DNA of 63,656 nt, counting the filler, from Atractiella rhizophila (taxonomy: Eukaryota): NCBI GenBank assembly GCA_021432655.1. It is 4 parts of 4 records of this genome, joined end to end, with 100 filler letters (N's around TTAATTAATTAA, not from the genome) between each part and the next. Parts side by side here need not be neighbours in the genome. Positions count along the whole stretch, not along the records: positions 19,987 to 39,842 come from MU271846.1; 3 more parts are not named here. One strand, written 5' to 3'. Made by a program: the position numbers and the translations under genes. A model generated the notes under the pieces. The model searched no databases, was not told the DNA's origin, and was given only the letters and a program-made list of their open reading frames with translations. Positions 1 through 59,818 of the stretch are shown here, piece by piece. The first letter of the stretch is position 1; each line of letters starts with the position of its first letter.

Positions 1-2759
1 TGAACATGGCACTGGCATTGAAGGGAAGCAAGCCCTTTTAACTTGTCAAGACTCAACAAGGTTTTCCAAACTCTTTTCAACACCACCTAACCTAAACATT
101 TCCCAAGCATCTGGAAGAGATCGCCCCAACCACCATATGGGGATTCCAGCCTGATCCTCACCCCTTTGAGCTTGTACACAATAAGGAAAGGAAAAGTCGT
201 GGTGAGGTGAATCAGGACGTTTCCAAGTAGCTCTAAGATTCCTCCTCCCTTGTCCATCCTTTCCTGTTCAAAATCATAGGAGTAATACCGCGCCGAAGTT
301 TAGCAGCATTCCAAAACCGCAAGTCCCTGGCACTGTGTGAAGACGCGGAGCATGGACGACGTATGACAGAAAGCAAACCATTCATGCCTTCGGCCAGACA
401 GCTTCGGGAACATCGACTAAGTTTGACAGACGCGAGCTCAGAATATGCAAACTCTCCTTACGTCCCTAAAGACGTAAAATCTGGGGAAGATACCTCCGGC
501 ACTACTGAAGATAAATGATTTGCGACACGACTAAGGAGAATGACAAAGGAGTTGGTGCCGCAGTTAGACATGCTGAACTACATCTCGACTTACCCTGACT
601 GCGATGAGCCAGCGTGGAAGTGGCTTGGAGTTTTGGGTCTAGGACTTGTATTGGGAAAGCTCTGACGATGCATCGCACATGGATACACCACCCATAGTTC
701 TCAAGATATTCCTACCAGATCTCCAGTGTCATCCTGAACTGCGATCGTCGGCACTTTCTCACTGTCACCTGCAGCTCTCACATTCTATCTACATTCAACT
801 AGAATGGACTTGAATGGCTGACGAAGCAAGAGGGAAGCTGAGATCTGCGTAGAGCCACCTCGTCCCACCTAGGGTTCCAAACTGATCCAGCCTCAGTCAA
901 TAGATCAAGGGAACCTGAATCTGAAGACAAGAAACAGAAGCTGAAGGAAGGGGGGAGAAAGTCTCCTTTTCTCCATCCTCAGCATCGCATCGAAAAGTCA
1001 AACCGATTGAGAACGCAGATTGCTCCCCTTACATAACCGTTGAAACTCGTTTGCTGTCTCGGGCCAGGCTTTCAGGGCCGATGGACCAAATGTATCGGCT
1101 TCAATGGAGAGGGGAATGAAACGCATGGCGCCGCAAACAAAAATGAAAACGGAACCAAAACGTGGAGGATTCGTCGATGGAGGGTTGTGACTCTACTTTT
1201 TGCAGTGGCAATCAATTACATTGTAAAAACGGCTGGAGAACAGTATCACCAGGCATCATTCAAGGTCCCAGCCCGATTCCAGTGGATTCCAGACCCGGGC
1301 AAAGCCTTCACCGGTGGGTTTTACTCATAATCCGAGCACTTCCAGCAACTTCATGGAGCCCTCAGCGCCGAATCTAGTCATCGCTTAAATCTAAGACGTC
1401 GCCTTATTCACAAGTTGACAATCAGCATTGAAATCAATATGCGTCCTTCGATTGCGTTTGTACGAAGGTCAATGCTATGGTGCATAAAAATTTGACATAT
1501 ATATTCAACGATGAAGATTCTGCAGTTGAAACCTTGAGTTGACTGTACGCGAACCATCTCTTCTAACCTTGTTAGGTTGACAGCATTAGGGTGCTGGAGC
1601 TGGCTGAAGAGTACACTGAAAAGTCTCACGTTTTGCAATGAGAAGCCTTGGTCGATGCCCATTGTTCTCAAAGACAAATGTAATCACGGGACATGCCGTT
1701 CTTTTGCTCCATGCCTATTGTACGAAGGACGGTCTTACGAAGAATACCTAACAGAACACTAGGACTTCACTTCTTCTCCTTGCATCCGTCAGCATCCAGG
1801 ATGGTACACGGAGACAGACAGAACTCCTCAGAACTGATTGGAAACGAACGAAAGGGTAAGAATCGGAGCAGCGCGGATGGCGCAGGGAAAGCTAGACGGC
1901 ATTACCTCCTCCGAGATCGACGCGAGAAGGGCTAAAACCGTGATAAGACGCGGTAAGCTGTTCCACAGAAGAACAGGACATCCAAGCAGCTTTTCGGAGG
2001 CCGCGTATCATTTACATACAGCGTTCAAGCCATCAAGCGAGCTTCTGTCTCCACAAAGACGCTTCTTCGCTCAGCACCAACACGGAACCAAACATATACT
2101 GATTGATTCTCATCGTCATTTCTGCAGCCTAAGCTTTTGATTGTGGTTCCTACGAGGAGGTATTGAGCGCATTCCAATTAGCGCTCAGCGCCTCCAAAAT
2201 AAAAACGCGAAGGTGACGTTCAAATTCTCGGGATGAATAAACACCATCAAAATCAGATCAATCGATGCAGGAAAGGATTAGATTGTATGGAAAGTATGTA
2301 TATCTCCACTGTAAGAACAGGAAGAGATAGAGCTGCTGAAAGAGCTCATTACCCAATGACAATTCTACCTCTACTCAAGCCCTTAATTCAGATTGCTCAC
2401 CTTCTTTCACCCTTTCTCTTTCCTTGCTAAATCACTGCGGACAGCGATCTGCCCAGGGATCTTACACTACATTCCTGCATCTTCCGCCATTGGATGGACA
2501 TGTTGGCAGCCGTCAAACGCGTCCAATCCGATCCAATCCATTTCTGACCCAATCAAGTCCCTTTACTCCTCCATCTCGCTGCCCAATCTCGATCTCCAAT
2601 TTCGAGCAAGCGCTCGTTACTGACAGAAAACTGAAAGCAACTAGGGAAGAAAGGGAGCCTCAAAAGTTGGTCGTTTTGTGGTGTTGTGGCATTGTCATTC
2701 CCAGAATAGTCCCAACAGCTGGAAGTGGAAACGACGAACGCGAACGCGTCAAAGCAAAA

Positions 2760-3689
2760 ATGTCGGTCTCTAACCATCCCTCCTTCTCAGCACATCACCA
2801 GCGCCTCGCCCGCCAATTGCTGTATCCACGACCAGCGGCTCAAGGCGGTCCCTCTACCTCGAAGAGCGGGGAGAGGACGACGACTGAGCTGGATGTTTTG
2901 AAACGGCACCATAGATTCATACGGTCCGAAGACGGTGCAAGTGGTGAAGGGAAGGAGGGAGAAGGAGATGAATGGGGAGATAGGCTTGCGAAGAAACATT
3001 ATGAGAGTTTGTATAAGGATTGGGGGATCGTGGATCTAAAACACTGGAAGACTCGCGCTGTGGGTCATCTCCCTCCGTTTCCTTCCTTGTTTGTTGTATG
3101 AAACATGGGTTATTGCTCGTTAATCTCTCTTCTCGGTGTTTGGATTTGGTACCAGATTGCGATTCGCTGGAGAACGGAATCTGAAGTGCTTTCAGGGAAA
3201 GGAGAAACTCGATGCGCAAACGTCCGTTGCACGACCGTCCAAGTCTCCCCCTCTCCCACACACTCGCCCTCTTCGACCGAACGGCGGGTTGCGAAGGAAA
3301 AGGAGGAGGAGGAGGATAGGAGGGAGAAGCTGAAAGAGTACGAGATCCCGTTCTCGTATGTCGAAGGAGGGCAGAAGAAGAGCACCATGGTCCGTGTTCG
3401 GGTTTGCGCGAGGTGTGCGAGGAAGTTAGTGCCTTCAAGATCTAGGAAGGAGAAGGGATTGAAGCAGGATGAGAGGGAAGAGAGAGGTGTACCAGATGAT
3501 ATTGTCGAGGAAGAGGGAGAGGATGAGTATGATAGACCAGAAGACGAAGAAAGCAAGATGAATGGGAGAGAAATGGAGCGGGAAGGGAGAAAGAGGCGGA
3601 GGGAGGAGGAGAGGGAAGAGAGGCATCGAAGGGATAGAGACAAGCGACGGCGCGTAGAAGAGGAGGAGCGGCGTCATCGCCCGAAATAA
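2760..3689 (+). CDS. FRA10AC1: FRA10AC1-like (folate-sensitive fragile site / spliceosomal) protein, 2 exons
   Basis: TELDVLKRHHRFIR...WGDRLAKKHYESLYKDWGIVDLKHWK | intron (gtgggt..accag) | IAIRWRTESEVLSGKGETRCANVRC...YEIPFSYVEGGQKKSTMVRVRVCARCARKL, followed by an R/E-rich tail. Confidence 0.85.
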
Positions 3690-5202: not shown

Positions 5203-7837
5203 ATGGAATGCCATTTCTGCGGTTCCCCTCACTCACTCTCCACCAGCACCTCCACTTCGAGGAACAACAGCCCACTCTCAACCCTCCTCCGGTCCTCAAA
5301 TGGGAAGAAAGGGAAAGGGAGAGAAGGATACACGTTCAAGTGCTTGGATTGTGAGGCGTGGAATTGGTGGGATGCTGAGAAAGGAGAGTGGAGCGACTGG
5401 CGGGAAGAGTGGGCGAGGGGTTTAGGTGGAGGTTGGTGTTCTCCTCAATTGTTTTCTTCTTCGCTTTGTGAAGTGGGGTGTTGTGTTGTAAAGACTGAAA
5501 GGCCTCGTTCGAGTTGGAAAGAACAAGTGCATTCTCTGAATTTGTGTTGTTCTCTTCCTCCTCTCCCCCAAAGAGTATATCTACACGTACGAGTACGCGC
5601 TTTCGATGCTGCGATTGTTCGTTATCCCTGGACAGCTGGTTGTCTAGTTGGTGTCGAAAAAGGAGAATTCTCCCTTTCTTTTCAACATTTGGATATCAGC
5701 GAGTAAACCTGCCAAGAGTGTTGTGACAGGAGCAGGGAGCAGTCATTGCCATAAGTGCAAGTCGGCTTGACTTTTCACGTCTGTGGAGAACGCACATTCA
5801 TAAAAGTTCTGTTCTTGGTTTTCCCTTTGTCAACGTTCCATGGTTGTTTCTTGACAGTTCAACCGGGTCAGTAATCAAGAGTGATGACTTCCTGATGTGT
5901 TGAGGCTTAAACGTCTCTCATCCCATCCCCACCAGGAGTAGAAGACGTATTTCGCTATTCCAGAGAGCCAGTTTCTTCGCCCATCACGCTGTCTTCCTTT
6001 TATTCGTTGACAGCAGCCATTTTGACCGTCCCATTTCACCAGTTAACCAATGAGGAGACACATTTCGACGTGAAATGAAAGCTGAGACAACGTTTTCTAT
6101 GAGAATGAAGCTGAAACCATGCACTAACATCGTTCGAACCAGCGTCGACCTCCTATGCGCAACCCACGCCATCGCTCTCGCCCTCCTCGACACCTGTCGA
6201 TCCTCCATTCTGCAAGGACTGTCTATCGAACCAATCGCTACAACTATACCTGCTGTCGAATTTTGCATCTAACAATGAAGCCGAAGTTTCCGCCTATCGA
6301 GAAACATTGAACCATCGATATCCCATCCTCTGCGCTTCTTGTGCTCCCAAGATTGAAGAAATCGTGAAGCGGAGGGATTACAAAGTTCGAGCTATGTACC
6401 TCAATTCGCGATTGGGGGAGAGGCGACGGCAATTACCGAACTCTAGCACGACAACAAATCACGAGAAAGGGAAGGAAAAGGAGGAGCATCATGACTATCG
6501 TGATGGCAGATCGGTGTGGACTTGGCGGGTGAAAGGGGCGTTGTGGGGAGTCACAATCTTTCATGGCTGGTGCTGGAAGGGAGAGTACATGCCATGGATC
6601 ACAGTATGGTTCTTGCTGTCCTTCGTTTGGAGTTTTTGGGACCCCCATTGGAGGAAGGCTTGTAACTTGAAGAAGGCCCATTGCAAAGTTGATCGTCTGG
6701 GATTGCCCCAATGGAAGGTTTGTCATCTCTTCATCTATCGATTGTCCTCATGCCAACCTATGAGAAGTAGATATCTCAAGCCATCGTTTTCGGTCTTCGA
6801 CTTTCAGAACTAATGTTTTATCTCGCTGTCGGGTATGACATCCGACTCAAACTAGTTTCGCTCTGCATCGCAATATTGGTCAGCTTCCTGCTACTGTCCG
6901 AAACGCATCCTAACTTTGACTGTATAGGGTCTTTCCTATGGTTATTGGAATCTCCGTTTGAGCTCTCAGATACCTGTCAAAGTCCACTTGTCTCATCGAC
7001 CTCGAGTGGCTACCCCTGTGCCGCTCAATCCCGACGACCTTCAAGAACGATCCGTTCTCGATCCGCTCGCCTCTCTTTCACTGTCGACCGCAGATGCCTC
7101 TCCACTCACAATTTCTGCACAGCAGCGCCAACCAATATTTGGCGAGGCCTCGACACCAACATCTACCCTCATCGGGCAACCAGACGACTCCCCCGCACCT
7201 GAAGGAGACATGGATTGGCAACCAACATACCAAGAGCCAAGTACACGGCGGAAGTCGAACAGCTTCGTCCCAGGCCCACAACGATTTTGGCCGCCTGAAA
7301 AGCCGACCGGACTCGAATCCTTGTTCGGCAATTCCCTCCAGCTTTTAGAAGGCTCCTCTTCCTCCCCTCGATCCTCCACCTCAACACCTTTGTTAGACAC
7401 ACCTGCTCACGACGTCCTTATACGTGGTCCAACAACTACGACTGATGCATCGGGAAGGAACAGGCAGCCATCATCCATATTGCAGCTTGCCTGCGATGTG
7501 ATCGGATTGGCCTTGCTTTCAAATCATATCTTTACGAGCAATCTACCGTTTTTTGCAATCATGTGCATGATTGCTGGTTTAGCGTTGTGGGACGACCTCA
7601 ACCAACCATGGCGAATGTCACTTTCACACGTTGTGAGTCCATGCATGCATAGAGCAAACGAAGCTGAAACTAATGATTTGTTAGGGTCGGAGACTTAGAT
7701 TATTTCTGTTGATGGGTGGCTTATTCGTCCCTGTAATATCGTTTAATTTTGAGACTTCGATGCAATCGTCCAAATGGACGACAATCTTTGCAATCGACTC
7801 TTTTTGGAATATATTGATTTTGAGCGTTTCGTTTTGA
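5203..7837 (+). CDS. IMA1: Inner nuclear membrane protein Ima1 (Samp1/TMEM201 family)
   Basis: Four CxxC pairs (CHFC, CLDC, PFCKDCLSNQ, RYPILCASCAPKI) joined across intron 5432-6142; hydrophobic TM segments; GPQRFWPPEKPTGLESLF motif. Confidence 0.8.
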
Positions 7838-19886: not shown

Positions 19887-19986
19887 NNNNNNNNNNNNNN
19901 NNNNNNNNNNNNNNNNNNNNNNNNNNNNNNTTAATTAATTAANNNNNNNNNNNNNNNNNNNNNNNNNNNNNNNNNNNNNNNNNNNN
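19887..19986. other. Assembly gap (44 N + TTAATTAATTAA linker + 44 N)
   Basis: Directly visible; an artificial six-frame-stop spacer. Confidence 0.97.
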
Positions 19987-21588: not shown

Positions 21589-22255
21589 NNNNNNNNNNNN
21601 NNNNNNNNNNNNNNNNNNNNNNNNNNNNNNNNNNNNNNNNNNNNNNNNNNNNNNNNNNNNNNNNNNNNNNNNNNNNNNNNNNNNNNNNNNNNNNNNNNNN
21701 NNNNNNNNNNNNNNNNNNNNNNNNNNNNNNNNNNNNNNNNNNNNNNNNNNNNNNNNNNNNNNNNNNNNNNNNNNNNNNNNNNNNNNNNNNNNNNNNNNNN
21801 NNNNNNNNNNNNNNNNNNNNNNNNNNNNNNNNNNNNNNNNNNNNNNNNNNNNNNNNNNNNNNNNNNNNNNNNNNNNNNNNNNNNNNNNNNNNNNNNNNNN
21901 NNNNNNNNNNNNNNNNNNNNNNNNNNNNNNNNNNNNNNNNNNNNNNNNNNNNNNNNNNNNNNNNNNNNNNNNNNNNNNNNNNNNNNNNNNNNNNNNNNNN
22001 NNNNNNNNNNNNNNNNNNNNNNNNNNNNNNNNNNNNNNNNNNNNNNNNNNNNNNNNNNNNNNNNNNNNNNNNNNNNNNNNNNNNNNNNNNNNNNNNNNNN
22101 NNNNNNNNNNNNNNNNNNNNNNNNNNNNNNNNNNNNNNNNNNNNNNNNNNNNNNNNNNNNNNNNNNNNNNNNNNNNNNNNNNNNNNNNNNNNNNNNNNNN
22201 NNNNNNNNNNNNNNNNNNNNNNNNNNNNNNNNNNNNNNNNNNNNNNNNNNNNNNN
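21589..22255. other. Assembly gap (667 N)
   Basis: Directly visible. Confidence 0.99.
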
Positions 22256-25200
22256 CCATGAAAGATTTTTGTACCAACTATACCTGACAACCATATAAAT
22301 CCTTTAAATGTAGAGTGTTGAAGATGGTGCAGTTTATGTTAAAGATCTGCTAAAGCTGAAGCAGGTCTTCGGCAGCGGTCTCTGTCAAGGTGTTTAGGCC
22401 TTGAACTAGCTGTGTGCTATTCTACCACGCCGCTATTCCAAGCATGTCAAGGTTAAGGGCAACGAACGTGTAGGCGGTCGAAGGTGTCGAAGCTAAGGAA
22501 AGGACGCTTGCTGGTAGTTTTAAAAGTGGCAAGCGTGTTGTGGTCGAGGTCGTGTTGACACTTCCCTATTATCGGTTTACCGCTCCAGCAAGAAAAGGAG
22601 GAAGTAGTGCGTCTGGGTCGCGAGCCCTGGCGGTTGCGGAGCTCGAGAATGTGCAGGGGTCGGAGGTCCGTGGGGAGGTTCCAGAGCTGTGCCATTAGGT
22701 AGTTTTAAATGCGGCTCCTCCAAATCTGGAGCGGTAAAAGAATCCGCAAACCAGGAAAAACCGAGAAAAAGTAGCAGGAGTTAAAAGAGGAGTGTTTTGA
22801 AGTGGAGGCAGGCAGAGAGTCGCAGAAGAGAAGTTGAAGCGTCTCTTTCCTCTGCTTTAACCTATAACTTGTGGGTTATGGTTTCGACTACTTTCTGCGC
22901 CTCCTCTTCACCTTCCTAGATCAATTCTCCCCACCCTTCCCCTTTCTGGACTCCACCTCGTCTCTCCTAATGTTTTTCTCCATATCGGCGGAGTCAGTCC
23001 CTCACTCTTCACTGATACCGTTAACCGTACTTGGTGGCGTTCCTACCCTTCGTACCACCTTCAAACGACTCCCACTCTAAAGGAAGTAAAGGTACTGTAC
23101 TATAAACGGGCCACCAACACACCAGTTAGGGAGTTAGACGTCTTTCTCCGCAAAGAGACGTCATGTTACAAGAGGCGGTAAAAAGTAAAGCGTCTTTACC
23201 TTTAACGCCCAAACGCACAAAAGAGGTACTAAAACTTTCATAACACAGTGACTGCTTGCAAGCCCCGACGCCCATCTCTTTCTTCAAGGTAAGGGTCGAG
23301 ACATGCTGTGCGAATGACTTTGAGACCGGCAGAAGGCTCCAAATGGTCGCAGACTTGAAGCGTTCGCCTGTATACTCTAGCGCTTAGAAGGGTGTAAGTG
23401 AGAGCAGGTTTATCGACGACCTCCTGCGCAGGAGCAGTGTGGCCCCCCGCACTATCAAATCTGTGATACTTCGAAAACCCTCGGTGCTTCGCTCGTTTCC
23501 CTAAGCGCTACAAAACTACTTAGACCCTCTCCTTTAGGACTTCCTGAAGCTTCCACAGCGAAAACGGTAGTTGCTTAACCGCCTTGGCTCCCACAACAAC
23601 CTAATATTCGTAGCTGTCCCTTACTCGCTCCCTTAGCACGGCGGCAGATGCTTAGAAAGAAGGCAAAAGGGTATGCGCCTGACCTCCCCATCTCCACCCC
23701 ATACCCTGAGCAAACAGCCTCGGACACGCGGTCCTTCACGACGCTCTTCTGAGAACCACCCGAATCTCTCCTTGCTCGTTGGCCTCTACGTTAAAAGCGT
23801 CTGTTACCGTGTCAGTAGGGTGAAGTTCTAAGGACCTGAGCGTTTGGATAACGAGGTCTTCGAACTGTTTCTTTGTTAGCTTTGCCTCTCAGCAGTTCGG
23901 CAGTGGAGTCCTGTTCGTTCTCCTTCTCCTACCGGAGCTGTTTGCTCTCAAAGCGTAGTTCAAACTGTCGAGCCGAGATAGGTACAGACTGTCAGACTAC
24001 AGAGCCTTCAGAGGTCTTCTCCGACGAGTAAGTCTCCGAAAGCTTAAGAGGTTGAGCAATCCTAGTTTCTCAGATCCCAATACGTTGCTAGACAGTCAAT
24101 CCTCTTTGGTACCTCGCAAGATGAGCCTAACCGCCTGCCAATGACCCGAGATAGGACAGAAGTCGGTAAGTTTTAAACTACCCAAAGAGCTATAGTTGAA
24201 GGGGTCATTGACCATAATATTGGGTGGGTTCGTAATAGATAAGTTACGATCATACCGCGTTCAGCTTAAACTCCTAGCACAGCTAGTCTAAAAGACCTCT
24301 CCATCATGTTGACCATACAGAATGTGAAGGTATTAAGAAGGCAAGTTTGGTACTTTATCCACCTCCTTTATTAGGCGGAGCGGTAGTTGTAAGGAAGGTC
24401 TCTGTAGCCGAGTACGCTGTGTAAAGTGGACTTTAGGTAGGTTGGCTACATCTACAAAAGAGAGGGAGGGCAAGACCGTTGCCTCAGTGGGTAAGAGACC
24501 AGGGAGTTTTTATGGAGTTGAGAGCTTAAAAGCTGCAACGAAAGTGGGTAGAGGTTCCAACGCCTCTGGTCATGTGAACGTTGCAGTGTGAGGACGAGGG
24601 AGAGATGGCAAAACGACTATGCCACGGAAAAAGCCTCAGACGTTTCACCTTCCAAGAAGATCTATAGCTACCGGTCCGCATAAGTCCAGCAAAAAACTCG
24701 AACAACTTCTACCCTTCGCGTCATTACTTCTCATGCGACATACTTCTTAAGAAGTCGCTAATGAACTAGGGAACCAATCAGGAATGAGAACAGCTTTCTC
24801 GGTTGGAACTGTAACGATTTTCCATAGTGCAGTAAGGGTAAAGGTACCTCATGTTCCTCTAGATGTTGCAGAAGTTAATAAAGGAACCAGAGGGTCTAGT
24901 TCTTCTCCTCTTCAACTACCTTCTTTACGTTTTCCTACCATGTAGGTGCAGCTCCTTCGACAATTTAGCAGACGCCTTTTTCTTCTCCATAGTTCCTCTA
25001 GCTCTCTCTTCTATCTTCTATGTGGGACTCCAAGGTTGACGACCCTGGCGTTCACTTTGATTCTCTTCAAAAGAGCTCCGAGTCTTGGATTACAGTACTG
25101 TGGTTTACTTCAGGCAGAAGGGAGCCAAATTCGGGGCATATCTATCACATAAACATAAACTAAAAATCTTGACCCTGGCTGAGAAGCTAGCCTTAGTAGC

Positions 25201-25430
25201 TTCGCTATTCTGGAAAACAATCCACATTAACCCACAACAGGAAAATAAGCAATGAGCAACAAGGTACCGTGGAAAAGCGTAGTTGTCCACTCATAATAAT
25301 GCAGAAACTTCGAAAAGCCTAATGACATGAAAGACGTGATTGTGTGTCGTGAGTACAATGGAAACCCGACGAAAGAACGGTCCTGACCCTGGCTGATCGA
25401 AGGGGATTGTAACTTTGCGAGTCTTGTATC
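22256..25430. other. Block present as complement-only (equivalently reversed-not-complemented) sequence
   Basis: No credible ORFs in six frames, but the base-wise complement read left to right gives a spliced gene; right boundary lies between ~25030 and ~25480, probably beyond 25350. Confidence 0.93.
22578..25430. CDS. CAP10: CAP10-like glycosyltransferase family 90 (xylosyltransferase-like, type II membrane), readable only in the complement
   Basis: Complement translation: EHPIPKLMKDAEEKWKDL...GWEAWWKFA|..FAINELAEPRV..DWRGRGGVWDSFVGACAPGSAARRL..HGAFYSDWRTVTGLYPVFS..IFWRGSTTG|GG..FQRHRL..LLDIDGQAYSGRFLSLL..KSTLYEEFFSDYLIPW|YHVIP. GT-AG introns at 23073-23276, 24314-24359 and 24775-24822; several single-base indels; 3' end tentative. 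Confidence 0.88.
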
Positions 25431-25484
25431 AACTAAAATACTTAACGCATCATGACTCTAAAGAAATGATATTCGGGTGAGAGC

Positions 25485-26360
25485 TTAAGGCGTTGTATTT
25501 GGAGGAAGAGTGATCGGTTCGGGCTTGAGAGAATGTCGAGCCAGGGTAAGCACTGATCTCTTCATCGATTGTCTCAAATCGTCCATTTGCGTCGAAGCAA
25601 AGAGATCCTGCTCATACAACTTGAGCCGCAAATGAGAGCGCTTTTCAGCAAATAACACACCTCTTTCGCAACCTCAAAACGACCTGAGAATGCTTTTGAA
25701 TTCCCAAGGAGCAGTTGGAGAGAATCGCTGATGGAATCTACGTGCTTCAAGTCTTCAAATAGCCTCTACTCCCATTTCAATTTAGGCAGAGGAGAACCTG
25801 GGGGTCGCGCACATTCTGCCACGCAGCTGCAAACACAAGTGGGAATCTTTTTGCCCACGTCTTCGCGATAGCGCGAAACACGTCTTGGGAAATATCGATG
25901 TATCCTTCTCCATTTACGCTGAAACTGACGCGTATTGAGGTGAGGCGAGCCGCTGAAGCGGTCGTGATCAGTTCTGAAGAACGAGAACCATTTGCGAGGG
26001 AGATTTCGAGTGAACAACTTTCGACGCGTCGGACTTGAGAAATCGACAGCGCTTCTTTTAACTGTAACACATCGAAGGAAGTCCCAGCTGTGAAGGTAAC
26101 AGAAGCTGACCAACCTCTTCCAATTGTAGCACGAAACTCTGCGCGAGATCTTCTTCACGTATATCTTCATCAAATTGCAACTGGATTGGCAATGTGCTGG
26201 GAGCGATCACGTCGATAAGCCTGCTTCTTGAGGAAATGATGGCTGGGGCTTCGATCTCAAAAAAGGATTCGACTGCAAGCGTTCCAAGACGTGTCGTAGC
26301 CTTTTTCTTAATTTTCTTGATCCCTCCCATCCCCAGTCCCATCGACATCCTTTGCTCCAT
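25485..26360 (-). CDS. Hypothetical protein (multi-exon), divergent from Hsp110
   Basis: Parts of ORFs 26058-26546 and 25777-26070 plus downstream exons ending DLFASTQMDDLRQSMKRSVLTLARHSLKPEPITLPPNTTP*. Confidence 0.55.
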
Positions 26361-26453
26361 CCCTCTTGACGCGTCGTGTCGCGTGTCGCTATTTCTTTTG
26401 TGGTCACGTTTTTTGGGCATTCTTGCCACAGCTCCGTTAAACTTTACGCGAAG

Positions 26454-26500
26454 TTCTGGAAAATTTTCGACGACTACAAAGCTTCTGGACGATTCTGGAC
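26454..26500. promoter_or_regulatory. Probable heat-shock elements upstream of Hsp110
   Basis: TTCtgGAAaaTTT and TTCtgGACgaTTCtgGAC: imperfect alternating nGAAn/nTTCn units 60-110 nt upstream of the ATG. Confidence 0.5.
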
Positions 26501-26560
26501 ACGAAATAGAAAAGGACCACTTAGATCGCCACCCTTGCAACAGCACCTATCACCCCCAAA

Positions 26561-29500
26561 ATGACCAGCGTAATCGGTATCGATGTTGGAAATTTGGCCT
26601 CCAAGGTAAGCTCTCATCGTCAACTGAAGCATCAGCCTGATCGAGTCGATGGCGCACAGATTGGAGCGGCGAGAAATCGCGGAATTGATATCTTGATCAA
26701 TGAAGTCTCTAACAGGGCTACTCCGTTCGTGTTTGCCGTGCTGGACTTGGGGTTTCCTGATCAAAACGGAAAAGGCCTTGGGGGCCTTCCGAACCCCGTC
26801 AACGAAAAATGGGGAAGCCGCAAAAAAGCAAGAAAAGGGGAAACTCAAAAAAAACAATGGAAACCTGAAAAAAATGAATGGAACGGCCCTGCAAGGAAGG
26901 CCCTCCCTTGGCCTGCCTTAATTGGGCCGGCCAATGAATTGGTGTCCATTTCTTTGTCTCTCTGATGGTAGGACCCTGACATTCAACAATATGAAGCGAA
27001 GTATCTCAATAATGAGCTGGTAGACGTCAAGGGATCCGTGGGAGTCAAGGTGGGTTCTTTTGGTACAAAAAAACCGTTTTTTCTGAACACAGGTCAGGTT
27101 AACTATCTTGGAGAGCAAACTGAGTTTTCCGCCACACAACTGTATGGTGCATACCTTGGGAAGCTTCGAGACATTGCTGCGAAAGAGCTTAAATCAGCGG
27201 TCAACGATGTCGTTATCGCTGTTCCCGGCTGGTATACTGATGCTCAAAGGCGTGCCGTTCTTGACGCTGCTGAAATCGCCAACCTCCACACCTTACGACT
27301 GATTAACGAACCCACCGCTATTGCCCTTGGCTACGGCATCACCAAAACCGACCTTCCTCCTCCCGAAGAGAAGCCCAAGCATATTGCGTTTGTCGATATA
27401 GGACACTCCTCTTACTCCGTTTCCATCGTCGCTTTCAGTAAAGGATCTCTCACTGTCAAGGGTACGGCTTACGATCGTCATTTCGGAGGTCGAGATATCG
27501 ACTGGGCTCTCGTCGAGCATTTCGCTGAGGAGTTCAAGTCGAAGTACAAGATTGACGTCAAGAGCAACAAGAAAGCTGTCTTCAGGCTCGCCAGTGGTGT
27601 TGAGAAGTTGAAGAAAATCCTTAGCGCAAATGCCGCCGCACCGCTCAGTGTAGAGAGCATCATGAATGATGTCGACGCTTCGAGTTCTATGACGCGTGAA
27701 GCCTTTGACGAAATGATTGCCCCGCTCTTGGAGCGCACAATCGCGCCTCTCGAAGCGGCTTTGGCTGAAGCGAAAATCTCACCCGATGAGATCGAGGCTG
27801 TCGAGTTGATTGGAGGTTCGACAAGGATTCCGGCGCTCAAAAACCGCATTCAGTCGTTCTTCGGGCGACCGCTCAGTTTCACCTGCAATCAAGAGGAGGC
27901 TGTTTGTCGAGGCGCCACTCTCGCTTGCGCCATCCTTTCCCCAGTTTTCAAGGTGCGAGACTTCTCGACGAGCGATATCACCGGATTCCCCATCGACTTT
28001 ACTTGGGAGAGAGACGCTGGCGATCCGGACGATGATACCACTTTAAGGGTTACCCAAAAGATGGAAGCCGTCCCCTCAAAAGTCAAAGCCCTTACCTATT
28101 ACCGCAAGCAACCTTTCGAAATCATGGCCTCTTATCCAGATGTTAAGGATCTTCCCGGTGTCTCCAGCCCTTTCATCGGCAAGATCTCACTTCAAAACGT
28201 CACGCCGAATTCGAAAGGCGACTTCTCCCAAGTTAAGCTCAAGGTCAGGCTTAATCTTCACGGTATTCTTTCCGTCGATTCTGCTGCGCTGGTTGAAGAG
28301 GTGGAAGTCGAGGCTCCCGCCGCAGAGCAAAAGATGGATGTTGATGGAGGAGAAGTCCCAGCAATTACCGCAAGCAACCTTTCGAAATCATGGCCTCCTA
28401 TCCAGACGTTAAGGATCTTCCCGGTGTCTCTAGCCCTTTCATCGGCAAAATCTCACTTCAAAACGTCACGCCGAATTCGAAAGGCGACTTCTCCCAAGTT
28501 AAGCTCAAGGTCAAGCTTAATCTTCACGGTATCCTTTCCGTCGATTCTGCTGCGCTGGTTGAAGAGGTGGAAGTCGAGGCTCCCGCCGCAGAGCAAAAGA
28601 TGGATGTTGATGGAGGAGAAGTCCCAGCTGAAGGTGCAGACGCACCGCCGGCGAAGAAATCGAAGAAGACTATTCGAAAGGATATTCCATTTACGTTCGA
28701 GACCTCGGCACTTCCAACTCACATCTTGAATGACATGAAGCAGAGTGAGGGGGAGATGCACTCTAACGACCGACTTGTTTCTGAGACGGAGGATCGCAAG
28801 AATGCCCTTGAAGAGTATATCTGTATGGATTTCTTTACTTCTTTCGACTCTCCCCGCTTAACAAGTTATTCCAGATGACATGCGAGAGAAACTTGATGGA
28901 TCATACTCTGCCTTTGCCCCTTCCGCCGACAAGGATACTCTACGATCCAAGCTTTCTGAAGCTGAGGATTGGCTGTACACGGAGGTTCGTGTATTTCTAT
29001 GCTTAGCCCGGTAGTATTAAAGTTGATCGTGAATAGGAGGGTGAGGATGCGAAAAAATCCGACTATGTGTCCCGTTTGGATGCTCTCAAAAAGCTAGGCG
29101 ACCCTATTGCCTTCCGTTATAGGGAGAAGGAGGAGCGCGACCGAGCAGCAAAGGCTTTGGGAGAGACGCTCGCTGGTTTCATGGACAAGGCACAGTCCGG
29201 AGACGAGAAATACAGTCACATTGAGGAGGTGAGTTTCGAGCCGTTTGCTACGAAGAAGAAAGAGCACTGAGCACCTATCTTATGGACTTGTAGAAGGACA
29301 TGCAGAAGGTCATCGAAACCGTTGCAAATGCTCAGAAGTGGATGCAAGATATCATGGCTAAGCAGTCGGAGCGACCAAAGGACCAGGACCCTGTCGTTAC
29401 TGTCAAGGATCTCGTCAAGAAGCGGGAAGAGTATGTTTCTTTTTGCTGCTCCGAGCGTTTAGTCGCTGACCTTTTTTCACCTTCAGTGTCACCTTTACTT

Positions 29501-29664
29501 GCACACCGATCTTGTCCAAGCCCAAACCTAAAACGGCAGAGCCGACTCCAACCTCCACTCCTCCGCCAAAGGAGGAGAAAAAGGAGGAGAAGCCGCAGAA
29601 TGGAGATGTGGATATGGATTTCGCTGGTGCTGAGGGAGAGAAGCCAGATATGGATGTCGATTAA
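26561..29664 (+). CDS. SSE1: Hsp110/Hsp88 (SSE1/Pss1-type Hsp70-family nucleotide exchange factor)
   Basis: MTSVIGIDVGN..IGAARNRGIDILINEVSNRATP; AVPGWYTDAQRRA; ALGYGITKTDLP; TEDRKNALEEYIY; C-terminal MDVD; disrupted in this assembly by a garbled patch and a 266-bp duplication. Confidence 0.93.
28098..28629 (+). repeat. Tandem 266-bp duplication within the Hsp110 coding exon
   Basis: 28098-28363 and 28364-28629 are near-identical, with about 6 substitutions, mostly synonymous. Confidence 0.95.
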
Positions 29665-29889
29665 AAAGCTTGAGAAGTCCCCTTTCGCATGTTCATTACG
29701 ATTGTTGAAGAATAGCATAGAAGTTGTATCGCTAGAACTATCTCACTGAAGAACGAACAATCAAAGAGTTTGTTTCACTGAATTCTTTGCATTGGCACCT
29801 CATATTGACATTCCAGAATGTACATCGGGTCCTCTTGAACGGATTGAAGCCGGATTGATTTACGTGTTCCCCCTTTGGCGATGTAGGCT

Positions 29890-31142
29890 CTACTCTTCCA
29901 TCTCAACATCATCATCCTCCCCCTCTTCCTCCTCCTCCAGATCCTCCCAGTCACTCTGCGTCACCTCTTCCTCTTCATACCTCTTCCAAAACTGTTCATC
30001 ATACGTGCCTTCCTCGAAGCCCCTTGGCTCCACACTCTTGTCAAAGAATGCTTCGGGTGGCTGCGACGAGGAGGTGGCTGAACCTTCGGGGTAAACATTG
30101 TGAAGTGCGAGAGGGATGAAAAAGCCTTTGGACGGTATCAGATACAGCGAGGCGTGAAGTTGATCTTGAGGAAGGAGGTGGGCAACCATGACTCCAGGTA
30201 GACGGAGACGCCAGGGAGGTGGGATGGTTGTCGGGCTGTCTACTCTCAAGAACCGTCAGTCTAGGGACTCTATCAAGACCTCAAAGAATTGGAGGCGACT
30301 AACCCAAGGTAAACTCCGTCAACTCAACTCCATCATCCAATATTTTCGAAATATCAAAATAACCCTCCAGGACGTCAGTCTCCTTAATCTCCTGGTCTTT
30401 GATTCCATATGCACTCTTGGCCCAAGTCGCAAAGTCTCTCCCGATCTTCTTCGCTTTCTCACTACGCTTCAATGTCTTTGCCTCCACCTTACACAGCTGT
30501 AGTAGGATCTCGACGTCTTGTTCTGGGAGGAAATTGAGGTCTGGAGGGGAGTGGAGGAAGCGCGTGAAGGCTGTTAGGTGGGAGACGATCAATTGAACAG
30601 TGTTGGGACGGAGGGAGATTTTGTCCACTGTGATCTGTTGAGGAAATGTTGGAAGGAAGACAAAACAGCGAACCGAGGTAGTTCTCAAAGAACTGCTGAT
30701 ACAGCAACTGAAGTAGATCTGTCTGTGGCCTGTGCAATTCACAAAAGCGAGCAGCATCATGCTGGTCGCCTGCATCAAGGACGAGATTCCATCCAAACCT
30801 TGAAGGACGCTAAACTCTCAGATAATTGTCAAGAGAAAGAGCCAGGGGAAAACGCACGACTCGCAGCACTCTCTAAAGAGATGCATGCTTCGCCATACAT
30901 CCTTAAACTCATTGCCTCCCTCCGCTTTCTTTGTCGCGACAAATGCCTTGAAGATGTTCGATAAAGTCGGTGTCTTCCGACAACATATGCTTGAACATCT
31001 CTATTCTCCCAAACTACAGGAAGACTGGAAAGCGCACCACTTTGGCCAAATCGCGATAATTGGCTGCCACATCTTCAGGCGGTAGCTCTGATAAACGATT
31101 CAGTAGAGGGTTTCCTCCTTGGGTACTGCTTCCTTCATCCAT
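29890..31142 (-). CDS. Hypothetical protein with acidic C-terminus (multi-exon)
   Basis: Co-oriented exon ORFs (MDEGSSTQGG..., ...QLIVSHLTAFTRFL..., ...PPWRLRLPG...EEEEEGEDDDVEMEE*) separated by GT-AG introns. Confidence 0.6.
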
Positions 31143-31396
31143 TACCAGAACTGACTCTGCCTTGTATGCTTGAAATTCGCCGTTTAGTGATTCTCCACAA
31201 GAACTTGAAAACTTAGTTTCATGAAATGCATCTGTATTCATGATGTCATAGGTACCCATTGGACTCTTCTCTTCCTTTCTGATGGGACACCATCCATTTG
31301 TTTGTTGCTGCCTGGCCCAAGAAATACACACAAGAAGTAAATTTATTTTATGCACAAACTAAATCTATTTCGCATGTTGTCATTGGATAATCCAAG

Positions 31397-32278
31397 TTAA
31401 AGCTTGACATCCAACTTGAGCTCTTCTAACACCGTCTCATCCGGAATCCTCTCCAAAAATGCCCATTCATCGTCGCTGCCATCACCTTCCTTGAATTTAA
31501 ACACCCTAACCTCCGCATTTGGCCAAGTCTGGAGTCAAAGACGTACGAACCATTAATTGACACTTGGCTACATAAGTAGCATAGCAAAAACGCACCTCTA
31601 CTCCTTCCCTATGTTCACCGCGACTGATAAAGTCCAATATACCATTGTGCGCCACAAGCACGACTTCTCTCTCGCTCCTTCCTCTAATATACCTCCTAAC
31701 CCAAGCAGCGCGCTTCTTCAGATCCTCAAAATGGGGGCTCCAGAACCCCTCTTTGCTCCTCCACTCTGGCTCAACCTTCTCAACCTCACTCCAATCCAAA
31801 CCCTTGACAGAAGAAAATTCAAAACCTTCACCATCTAGGAGAGTTGAGAGGGGAGATCCAGTGTCGCAGGGATTTGGACCAGACTCATGAGCTTGAGGGA
31901 GGAGCACGACGCCTTTCTGATTCGATTTCGGAAGTGATTCGATGTGTTCTTTGAGCGGAGTGAGCCCGTTCAAAGTCGTCTGGATCGTACGCCGCAGAGG
32001 GGAAGACAGGAGGAGGATGGAAGATGACTTTGACGAGTTGAGATAGCGACCGATCGGCGCATTGGGGATCGAGGTTGTCTGTGTGACTCCAAGTGGCGTG
32101 AGTGGAGGGTCGGGAAAGGATTGGGCTACTTCGAACGTGTATTGGGGAAGGTTGTGTTGGGCTTGCCCATGCCTGGACAATCACCAGAAACAGGTTATGA
32201 TCTGAGAACCCAGCAGATGGTAAGGACTGTAGCTTACCTGTATAGGTAGACACGTTTTTCTTTGATCTCTGGAGACAT
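31397..32278 (-). CDS. Histidine phosphatase / phosphoglycerate mutase-like protein
   Basis: RVYLYR|HGQAQHN, SSPLRRTIQT, CDTGS, VVLVAHNG and WPNAEVRVF motifs. Confidence 0.88.
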
Positions 32279-39842: not shown

Positions 39843-39942
39843 NNNNNNNNNNNNNNNNNNNNNNNNNNNNNNNNNNNNNNNNNNNNTTAATTAATTAANN
39901 NNNNNNNNNNNNNNNNNNNNNNNNNNNNNNNNNNNNNNNNNN
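39843..39942. other. Assembly gap with TTAATTAATTAA linker
   Basis: Directly visible. Confidence 0.97.
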
Positions 39943-59718: not shown

Positions 59719-59818
59719 NNNNNNNNNNNNNNNNNNNNNNNNNNNNNNNNNNNNNNNNNNNNTTAATTAATTAANNNNNNNNNNNNNNNNNNNNNNNNNN
59801 NNNNNNNNNNNNNNNNNN
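59719..59818. other. Assembly gap with TTAATTAATTAA linker
   Basis: Directly visible. Confidence 0.97.

Follow-up and report, generated by a model that had tools for sequence, protein, structure and literature searches.

We analyzed a window of 63,656 nucleotides of Atractiella rhizophila DNA (assembly GCA_021432655.1), in which a block of sequence directly to the right of a scaffold gap holds a gene of the GT90/CAP10-domain glycosyltransferase family that can be read when each base is complemented without reversing the order of the letters. The features of the window are collected in Table 1. Three separators with TTAATTAATTAA between their N runs give stops in all six frames. Between them lie pieces of 19,856 and 19,776 bases, and the remaining two parts of the window are cut ends. 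The window is an artificial string of separate scaffolds similar in length, and genes that flank a separator are therefore not neighbors. The same 12 letters are described in PMC539331, where they stand between shorter N runs and separate the contigs of pseudomolecules. Outside the block, we found Fra10Ac1- and Ima1-domain sequences, both belonging to eukaryotic families in keeping with a fungus-like source, and an Hsp70-family gene. Spliced contigs from two public runs (X3 and X4) gave 12 introns of 46 to 65 nt, which lie in the Hsp70-family gene and in unnamed minus-strand genes on both its sides. On the true DNA, the hidden GT90 gene has the gene at approximately 25530 to 26370 as its upstream neighbor.

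Table 1. Features of the window, with positions counted along its whole length
Feature	Position	Strand or reading	Details
Fra10Ac1-domain gene, two exon-like ORFs	2340-3686		E 2.4e-12 and 1.6e-22
Ima1 N-terminal domain ORF	6115-6810		E 2e-10
Separators, 100 bases each (N44 + TTAATTAATTAA + N44)	19887-19986, 39843-39942, 59719-59818		
Scaffold gap, 667 N	21589-22255		N run; 3' end of hidden gene runs into gap on true DNA
Reversed, uncomplemented block	22256 to 25008 +/-1		2753 bases; loose ends of run contigs and complement-only profile matches
GT90/CAP10-domain glycosyltransferase gene	22578-25008	complement (minus strand of true DNA)	3' end open
Exons 1-4 of hidden gene	22578-22774, 22822-23072, 23277-23404, 23457-23699	complement	
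Exons 5-7 of hidden gene	23767-24313, 24360-24774, 24823-25008	complement	
Intron 1 (proposed)	22775-22821	complement	47 nt, atypical GTCCTC start; path search
Intron 2	23073-23276	complement	204 nt, GTGAGA..TAG; only single-intron path; join aligns gap-free to references
Intron 3	23405-23456	complement	52 nt, atypical GTCCAA start; only path of usual intron length
Intron 4	23700-23766	complement	67 nt, GTATGG..TAG; one of 8 possible paths
Intron 5	24314-24359	complement	46 nt, GTATGT..TAG; joins WRGSTTG to G
Intron 6	24775-24822	complement	48 nt, GTTAGT..AAG; joins ..LIPW to YHVIP
Profile-matching piece	22745-23098	complement	E 8.8e-7 (14-protein profile), 2.2e-5 (120-protein profile)
Profile-matching piece	23237-23458	complement	E 0.009 (14-protein profile), 0.57 (120-protein profile)
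Profile-matching piece	23767-24351	complement	E 9.4e-18 (14-protein profile), 7.5e-14 (120-protein profile)
Profile-matching piece	24335-25012	complement	E 1.1e-18 (14-protein profile), 1.9e-15 (120-protein profile)
Correctly written flank, outside block	25009-25430		X1 and X2 contigs fit from 25008 on
Introns from spliced X3 and X4 contigs	25766-25812, 26062-26114	minus	
Introns from spliced X3 and X4 contigs	26606-26659, 27050-27097, 28823-28874, 28985-29036, 29229-29293, 29431-29486	plus	
Hsp70-family gene	26972-28875		Pfam E 1.9e-113
Four introns from spliced X3 and X4 contigs	within 30240-31037	minus	

Inside the block, stop-free stretches of at least 100 codons occurred in the complement or plain-reverse readings only, apart from one plus-strand stretch of 106 codons. 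In the rest of the window, long open frames were mainly plus or minus. A preliminary description of this locus had stated that 22256 to 25430 lacks real ORFs in all six frames, which holds as far as 25008, the 106-codon stretch aside; the remainder is correctly written sequence.

We assembled reference sequences for the family from at least 116 metagenome loci, which were picked by a degenerate pattern for the DxDG..SGRF motif. Long ORFs of the 14 best loci gave 14 proteins, of which 14/14 were over Pfam's PF05686 cut-off. These 14 proteins make up alignment A1, with which we retrieved 120 database proteins that had PF05686 in 120/120 cases among the matches listed (precomputed annotation). 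Two local profiles, one of the 14 and one of the 120 proteins, were used to search 2747 stop-to-stop pieces from 12 readings of the whole window. The 14-protein profile matched four complement pieces in the block and nothing else among the 2747. With the 120-protein profile, no piece beyond its three best complement pieces fell below an E value of 0.3, and the best plus- or minus-strand piece had an E value of 4.3. Below an E value of 4, matches to the GT90 profiles were found for 0/694 minus-strand pieces and 0/700 plus-strand pieces.

The selecting motif came from the complement reading, but the matches extend far past it, and the references are independently GT90 by Pfam. When the block pieces in 12 readings were compared with the metagenome loci by tblastn, 110/116 loci were matched, with 186 of the 189 matches in the complement reading, 3 in the reverse reading, and none in plus or minus. 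These matches were colinear. Sixty-two loci match a piece without the selecting motif (best E value, 3.4e-12), and 12 match the N-terminal piece. The three reverse-reading matches were rejected, as they lie antisense to the motif region by which the loci were picked. Bacterial GT90 genes were also tried as references and were too distant, giving a best tblastn E value of 0.11 outside the block. Among 401 sampled Bacteroidota genomes, GT90 was over Pfam's cut-off in 4 (L002-L005; G112, G244, G360, and G172), and each of these ORFs had 334 to 354 residues with a partial profile match between positions 153 and 307 of 396.

A codon-usage scan was noisy, with 37/407 scanned intervals favoring a mirror reading, 14 of these 37 overlapping the block. 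Clearly positive complement scores (7.0, 12.7, and 16.3) were confined to the block. The preliminary description had proposed a scan of the assembly for other blocks whose complement scores better; within the window, the block itself stood out. Outside the block, the sole run of three neighboring mirror-favoring intervals was at 5551-6300, in the plain-reverse reading with scores of at most 1.8, where the reverse reading is open at 5695-6048 and 5973-6284 and no gap is nearby. This signal is probably noise that falls within the Ima1-domain gene or next to it.

The spliced model of the hidden gene has seven exons and 655 codons with 0 stops, and it begins at the ATG at 22578 that the preliminary description had proposed. 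The true position of a base in the block is 47264 minus its given position, which places this ATG at 24686, approximately 320 bases from the junction. The model matched the 14-protein profile as one domain over positions 116 to 630 of 647 (203.6 bits; E value, 2.8e-64) and also matched the 120-protein profile (171.0 bits; E value, 2.2e-54), in agreement with the earlier decoding of the complemented sequence as GT90. When the exon coordinates of the model were read as given, there were 26 stops. Complement and reverse readings of real genes are often open for at least 100 codons elsewhere in the window, a point in favor of chance as the source of the GT90 likeness of the complement reading. We give that explanation effectively no weight, since an E value of 2.8e-64, reached over nearly the whole profile and colinearly across seven exons, together with the 26 stops in the sequence as given, puts the likeness far beyond chance.

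The introns of the 3' half of the gene were found with the usual rule for this window (46 to 65 nt, GTNNG then C, T, or G), which we took from the spliced X3 and X4 contigs, and the 5' half needed looser rules. A strict intron pattern search gave no match. Introns 4, 5, and 6 correspond to the three clean GT-AG introns noted earlier, intron 4 with the ambiguity given in Table 1. For intron 3, the alternatives were seven single-intron paths of 112 to 160 nt. Intron 1 is doubtful, and a one-base error at this place is a fair alternative because frame 0 holds a much better hydrophobic anchor. This best membrane-anchor stretch, at 22745-22800, has a mean hydropathy of 1.71 and lies in a frame other than that of the ATG, and the best 19-residue hydropathy in the all-intron model is 0.85. 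Some errors inside the block are conceivable because two of the six introns start atypically and one is 204 nt long. The homopolymer indels reported earlier are conceivable but not required, since an all-GT-AG path exists, and the density of homopolymers was unremarkable, at 3.63 per kb in the block versus 3.17 per kb in the flank. A frame-1 match at 23876-23960, common to 123 references, was set aside; it aligns to the N-terminal part of the references and is out of order. No stop codon occurs before the end of the block, so the 3' end is lost in the gap and the gene is incomplete (at least 655 residues), not whole as had been claimed.

The significant match of the local profiles across the catalytic domain places the hidden protein in the PF05686 family, and the conserved motifs and invariant residues of GT90 are present in its sequence. 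The spliced model contains all six motifs quoted in the preliminary description (residues 83, 230, 450, 469, 557, and 586). Of the 91 columns that are invariant in A1, an earlier partial model matched 54 and had a gap or an X in 2. Compared with fungal GT90/CAP10-domain proteins, the hidden protein matches colinearly over nearly the whole profile and shares the HPI.., ..EPRV, WRGSTTGG, DxDG..SGRF, and PW.H..P motifs, but it is only 25 to 27% identical to the nearest of 134 references, which are ascomycete or metagenomic. From this identity, it would be a distant branch or paralogue, and "Cap10 homologue" applies here at the level of the family and not of the orthologue. The gene also has six introns, whereas many reference loci are one uninterrupted ORF. 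Source names of matched proteins include "Glycosyl transferase CAP10 domain-containing protein," "capsule-associated protein CAP1," and "Beta-1,2-xylosyltransferase 1," and the named database matches are from Leotiomycetes, Dothideomycetes, and relatives. An N-terminal membrane anchor with type II topology is typical of the GT90 family. By family membership, the hidden product would probably act in the secretory pathway as a membrane-anchored sugar transferase.

We compared contigs of four public runs (X1 to X4) with positions 22256 to 32255. Contigs of X1 and X2, which represent one sample, fit the window rightwards from 25008, and leftward of this position they carry 57 and 94 letters that do not fit. 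The 30-letter consensus of these loose ends is the plain reverse of 22257-22286 at 30/30 letters; within the whole window, this string occurs in the reverse reading and in none of the plus, minus, or complement readings. The reversal is therefore seen directly at one end of the block only, from the 30 letters of this consensus out of loose ends of 57 and 94 letters. Because the X1 and X2 contigs join 25008 to the reversed letters, the block is turned end for end in the natural DNA and the gene lies on the minus strand: the base given as 22256 adjoins 25009, and the base given as 25008 faces the gap. A single C at the junction fits both sides, which leaves the boundary uncertain by one base.

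These contigs also bear on the extent of the block. It starts at 22256, the first base after the N run, exactly at the gap as had been described. The right end, earlier put at 25430, is at 25008 according to the X1 and X2 contigs, and the stretch 25009-25430 flanks the hidden gene on its upstream side in the true DNA. The preliminary description had listed a fourth intron in the complement reading at 25288-25348 (gtgagt..ctaac..cag). This is a chance look-alike, since run contigs there agree with the sequence as given; record 9 of X2 covers 25302-25541 with 2 letters differing. Depth was 0 over 22256-24927 in all four runs, and we did not count this absence of cover as evidence.

Only 53 of the 91 X1 contigs placed on the window are at least 99% alike, and X1 and X2 may be the very data behind the record or those of a near strain. 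The X1 contigs show two forms at many places within 25008-32255; at 26237-26339, approximately 214 of 335 X1 depth units show other letters. Between X1 and X2 and the window, there are scattered single-base differences and small indels. The two forms and the scattered differences suggest that there are two haplotypes or two nuclei, or that the sample is from a near strain.

The many single positions at which X1 and X2 depart from the window would be consistent with a natural inversion or a strain difference behind the mismatch between the record and the runs. We regard that explanation as extremely improbable. A natural inversion gives the reverse complement, yet the given minus strand has no gene reading, with no minus- or plus-strand piece among those searched matching the GT90 profiles, and the loose end is the plain reverse and not the reverse complement. 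Nor do we see any realistic prospect that the DNA of the organism is truly as given, as a biological "mirror" copy of the gene. The run contigs join 25008 to the reversed form, this reversed form is an intact intron-bearing gene, and the block as given is without support in the four runs. The preliminary description had held that reads matching the given sequence across the junction would speak against an artifact; among the contigs of the four runs, none that matched the given block across 25008 turned up. Copying from a template produces antiparallel complements, and we know of no enzyme that makes a reversed, uncomplemented copy.

These results show that 22256-25008 is, almost certainly, no real feature of the organism but an in-silico reversal that hides an ordinary, distant fungal member of the GT90/CAP10-domain family. 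Only the order of the letters was turned, so neither strand can be read in any of the six frames. Ordinary assembly inversions and misjoins likewise occur at scaffold gaps, affect a contig end, and hide a gene from annotation. However, they give the reverse complement, which is readable on the other strand, whereas this block is readable on neither. Among the results listed by full-text literature searches, there was no description of a reversed, uncomplemented block in a deposited assembly. According to a portion of the RRE preprint (10.64898/2026.04.14.718546), reversed, uncomplemented genomes are made on purpose as decoys for false-discovery estimates. The string operation is the same, but there it is deliberate and meant to give signal-free sequence, and here it is accidental and within a record.

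The preliminary description had attributed the block to a half-done reverse complement at the gap, made in silico, and the junction of 25008 with the plain reverse agrees with this. We think that the error probably arose in a partial gap fill or contig extension because the block reaches from the gap to a point within sequence that is otherwise continuous. A gap filler or extender would add bases one at a time to the left end of the contig, or work on the opposite strand. Its code would have to reverse and complement the new string before prepending it, or reverse it alone if plus-strand letters were collected outward. If the string were prepended after just one of the two operations, reversing and complementing, this would be one operation too few, and the base truly nearest the contig would be written farthest away. 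The contig to the right of the gap would then open with 2753 bases that stand end for end without having been complemented. A reversal after assembly, by an editing script of the submitter or by the processing that strung the scaffolds together, would fit a record as heavily processed as this one, with its three separators between pieces of approximately 19.8 kb and their 12 letters known as a pseudomolecule separator from the passage in PMC539331. We consider it unlikely, as the block begins exactly at an internal gap and whole pieces would be the likelier target of a script run later. If gap filling or contig extension is the source, the error could conceivably be systematic, such that each partly filled gap, also in other assemblies from the same code, would have a reversed extension on one side; this suggestion is tentative.

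The finding is of interest mainly for curation and has no bearing on natural DNA copying. In the record, 2.75 kb of the genome is misrepresented, and read mapping will leave a hole over the block, which can be fixed by turning the block end for end. The same error may exist elsewhere because six-frame tools cannot see an error of this type. If it is systematic, genes adjacent to gaps would be silently missing from the annotations of a set of public genomes, and a scan for coding blocks that can be read only in the reverse or complement would recover them. At this locus a gene finder would call nothing, and A. rhizophila would appear short of one GT90/CAP10-domain glycosyltransferase, a member of a family that the source names of its members tie to fungal cell-surface polysaccharides.
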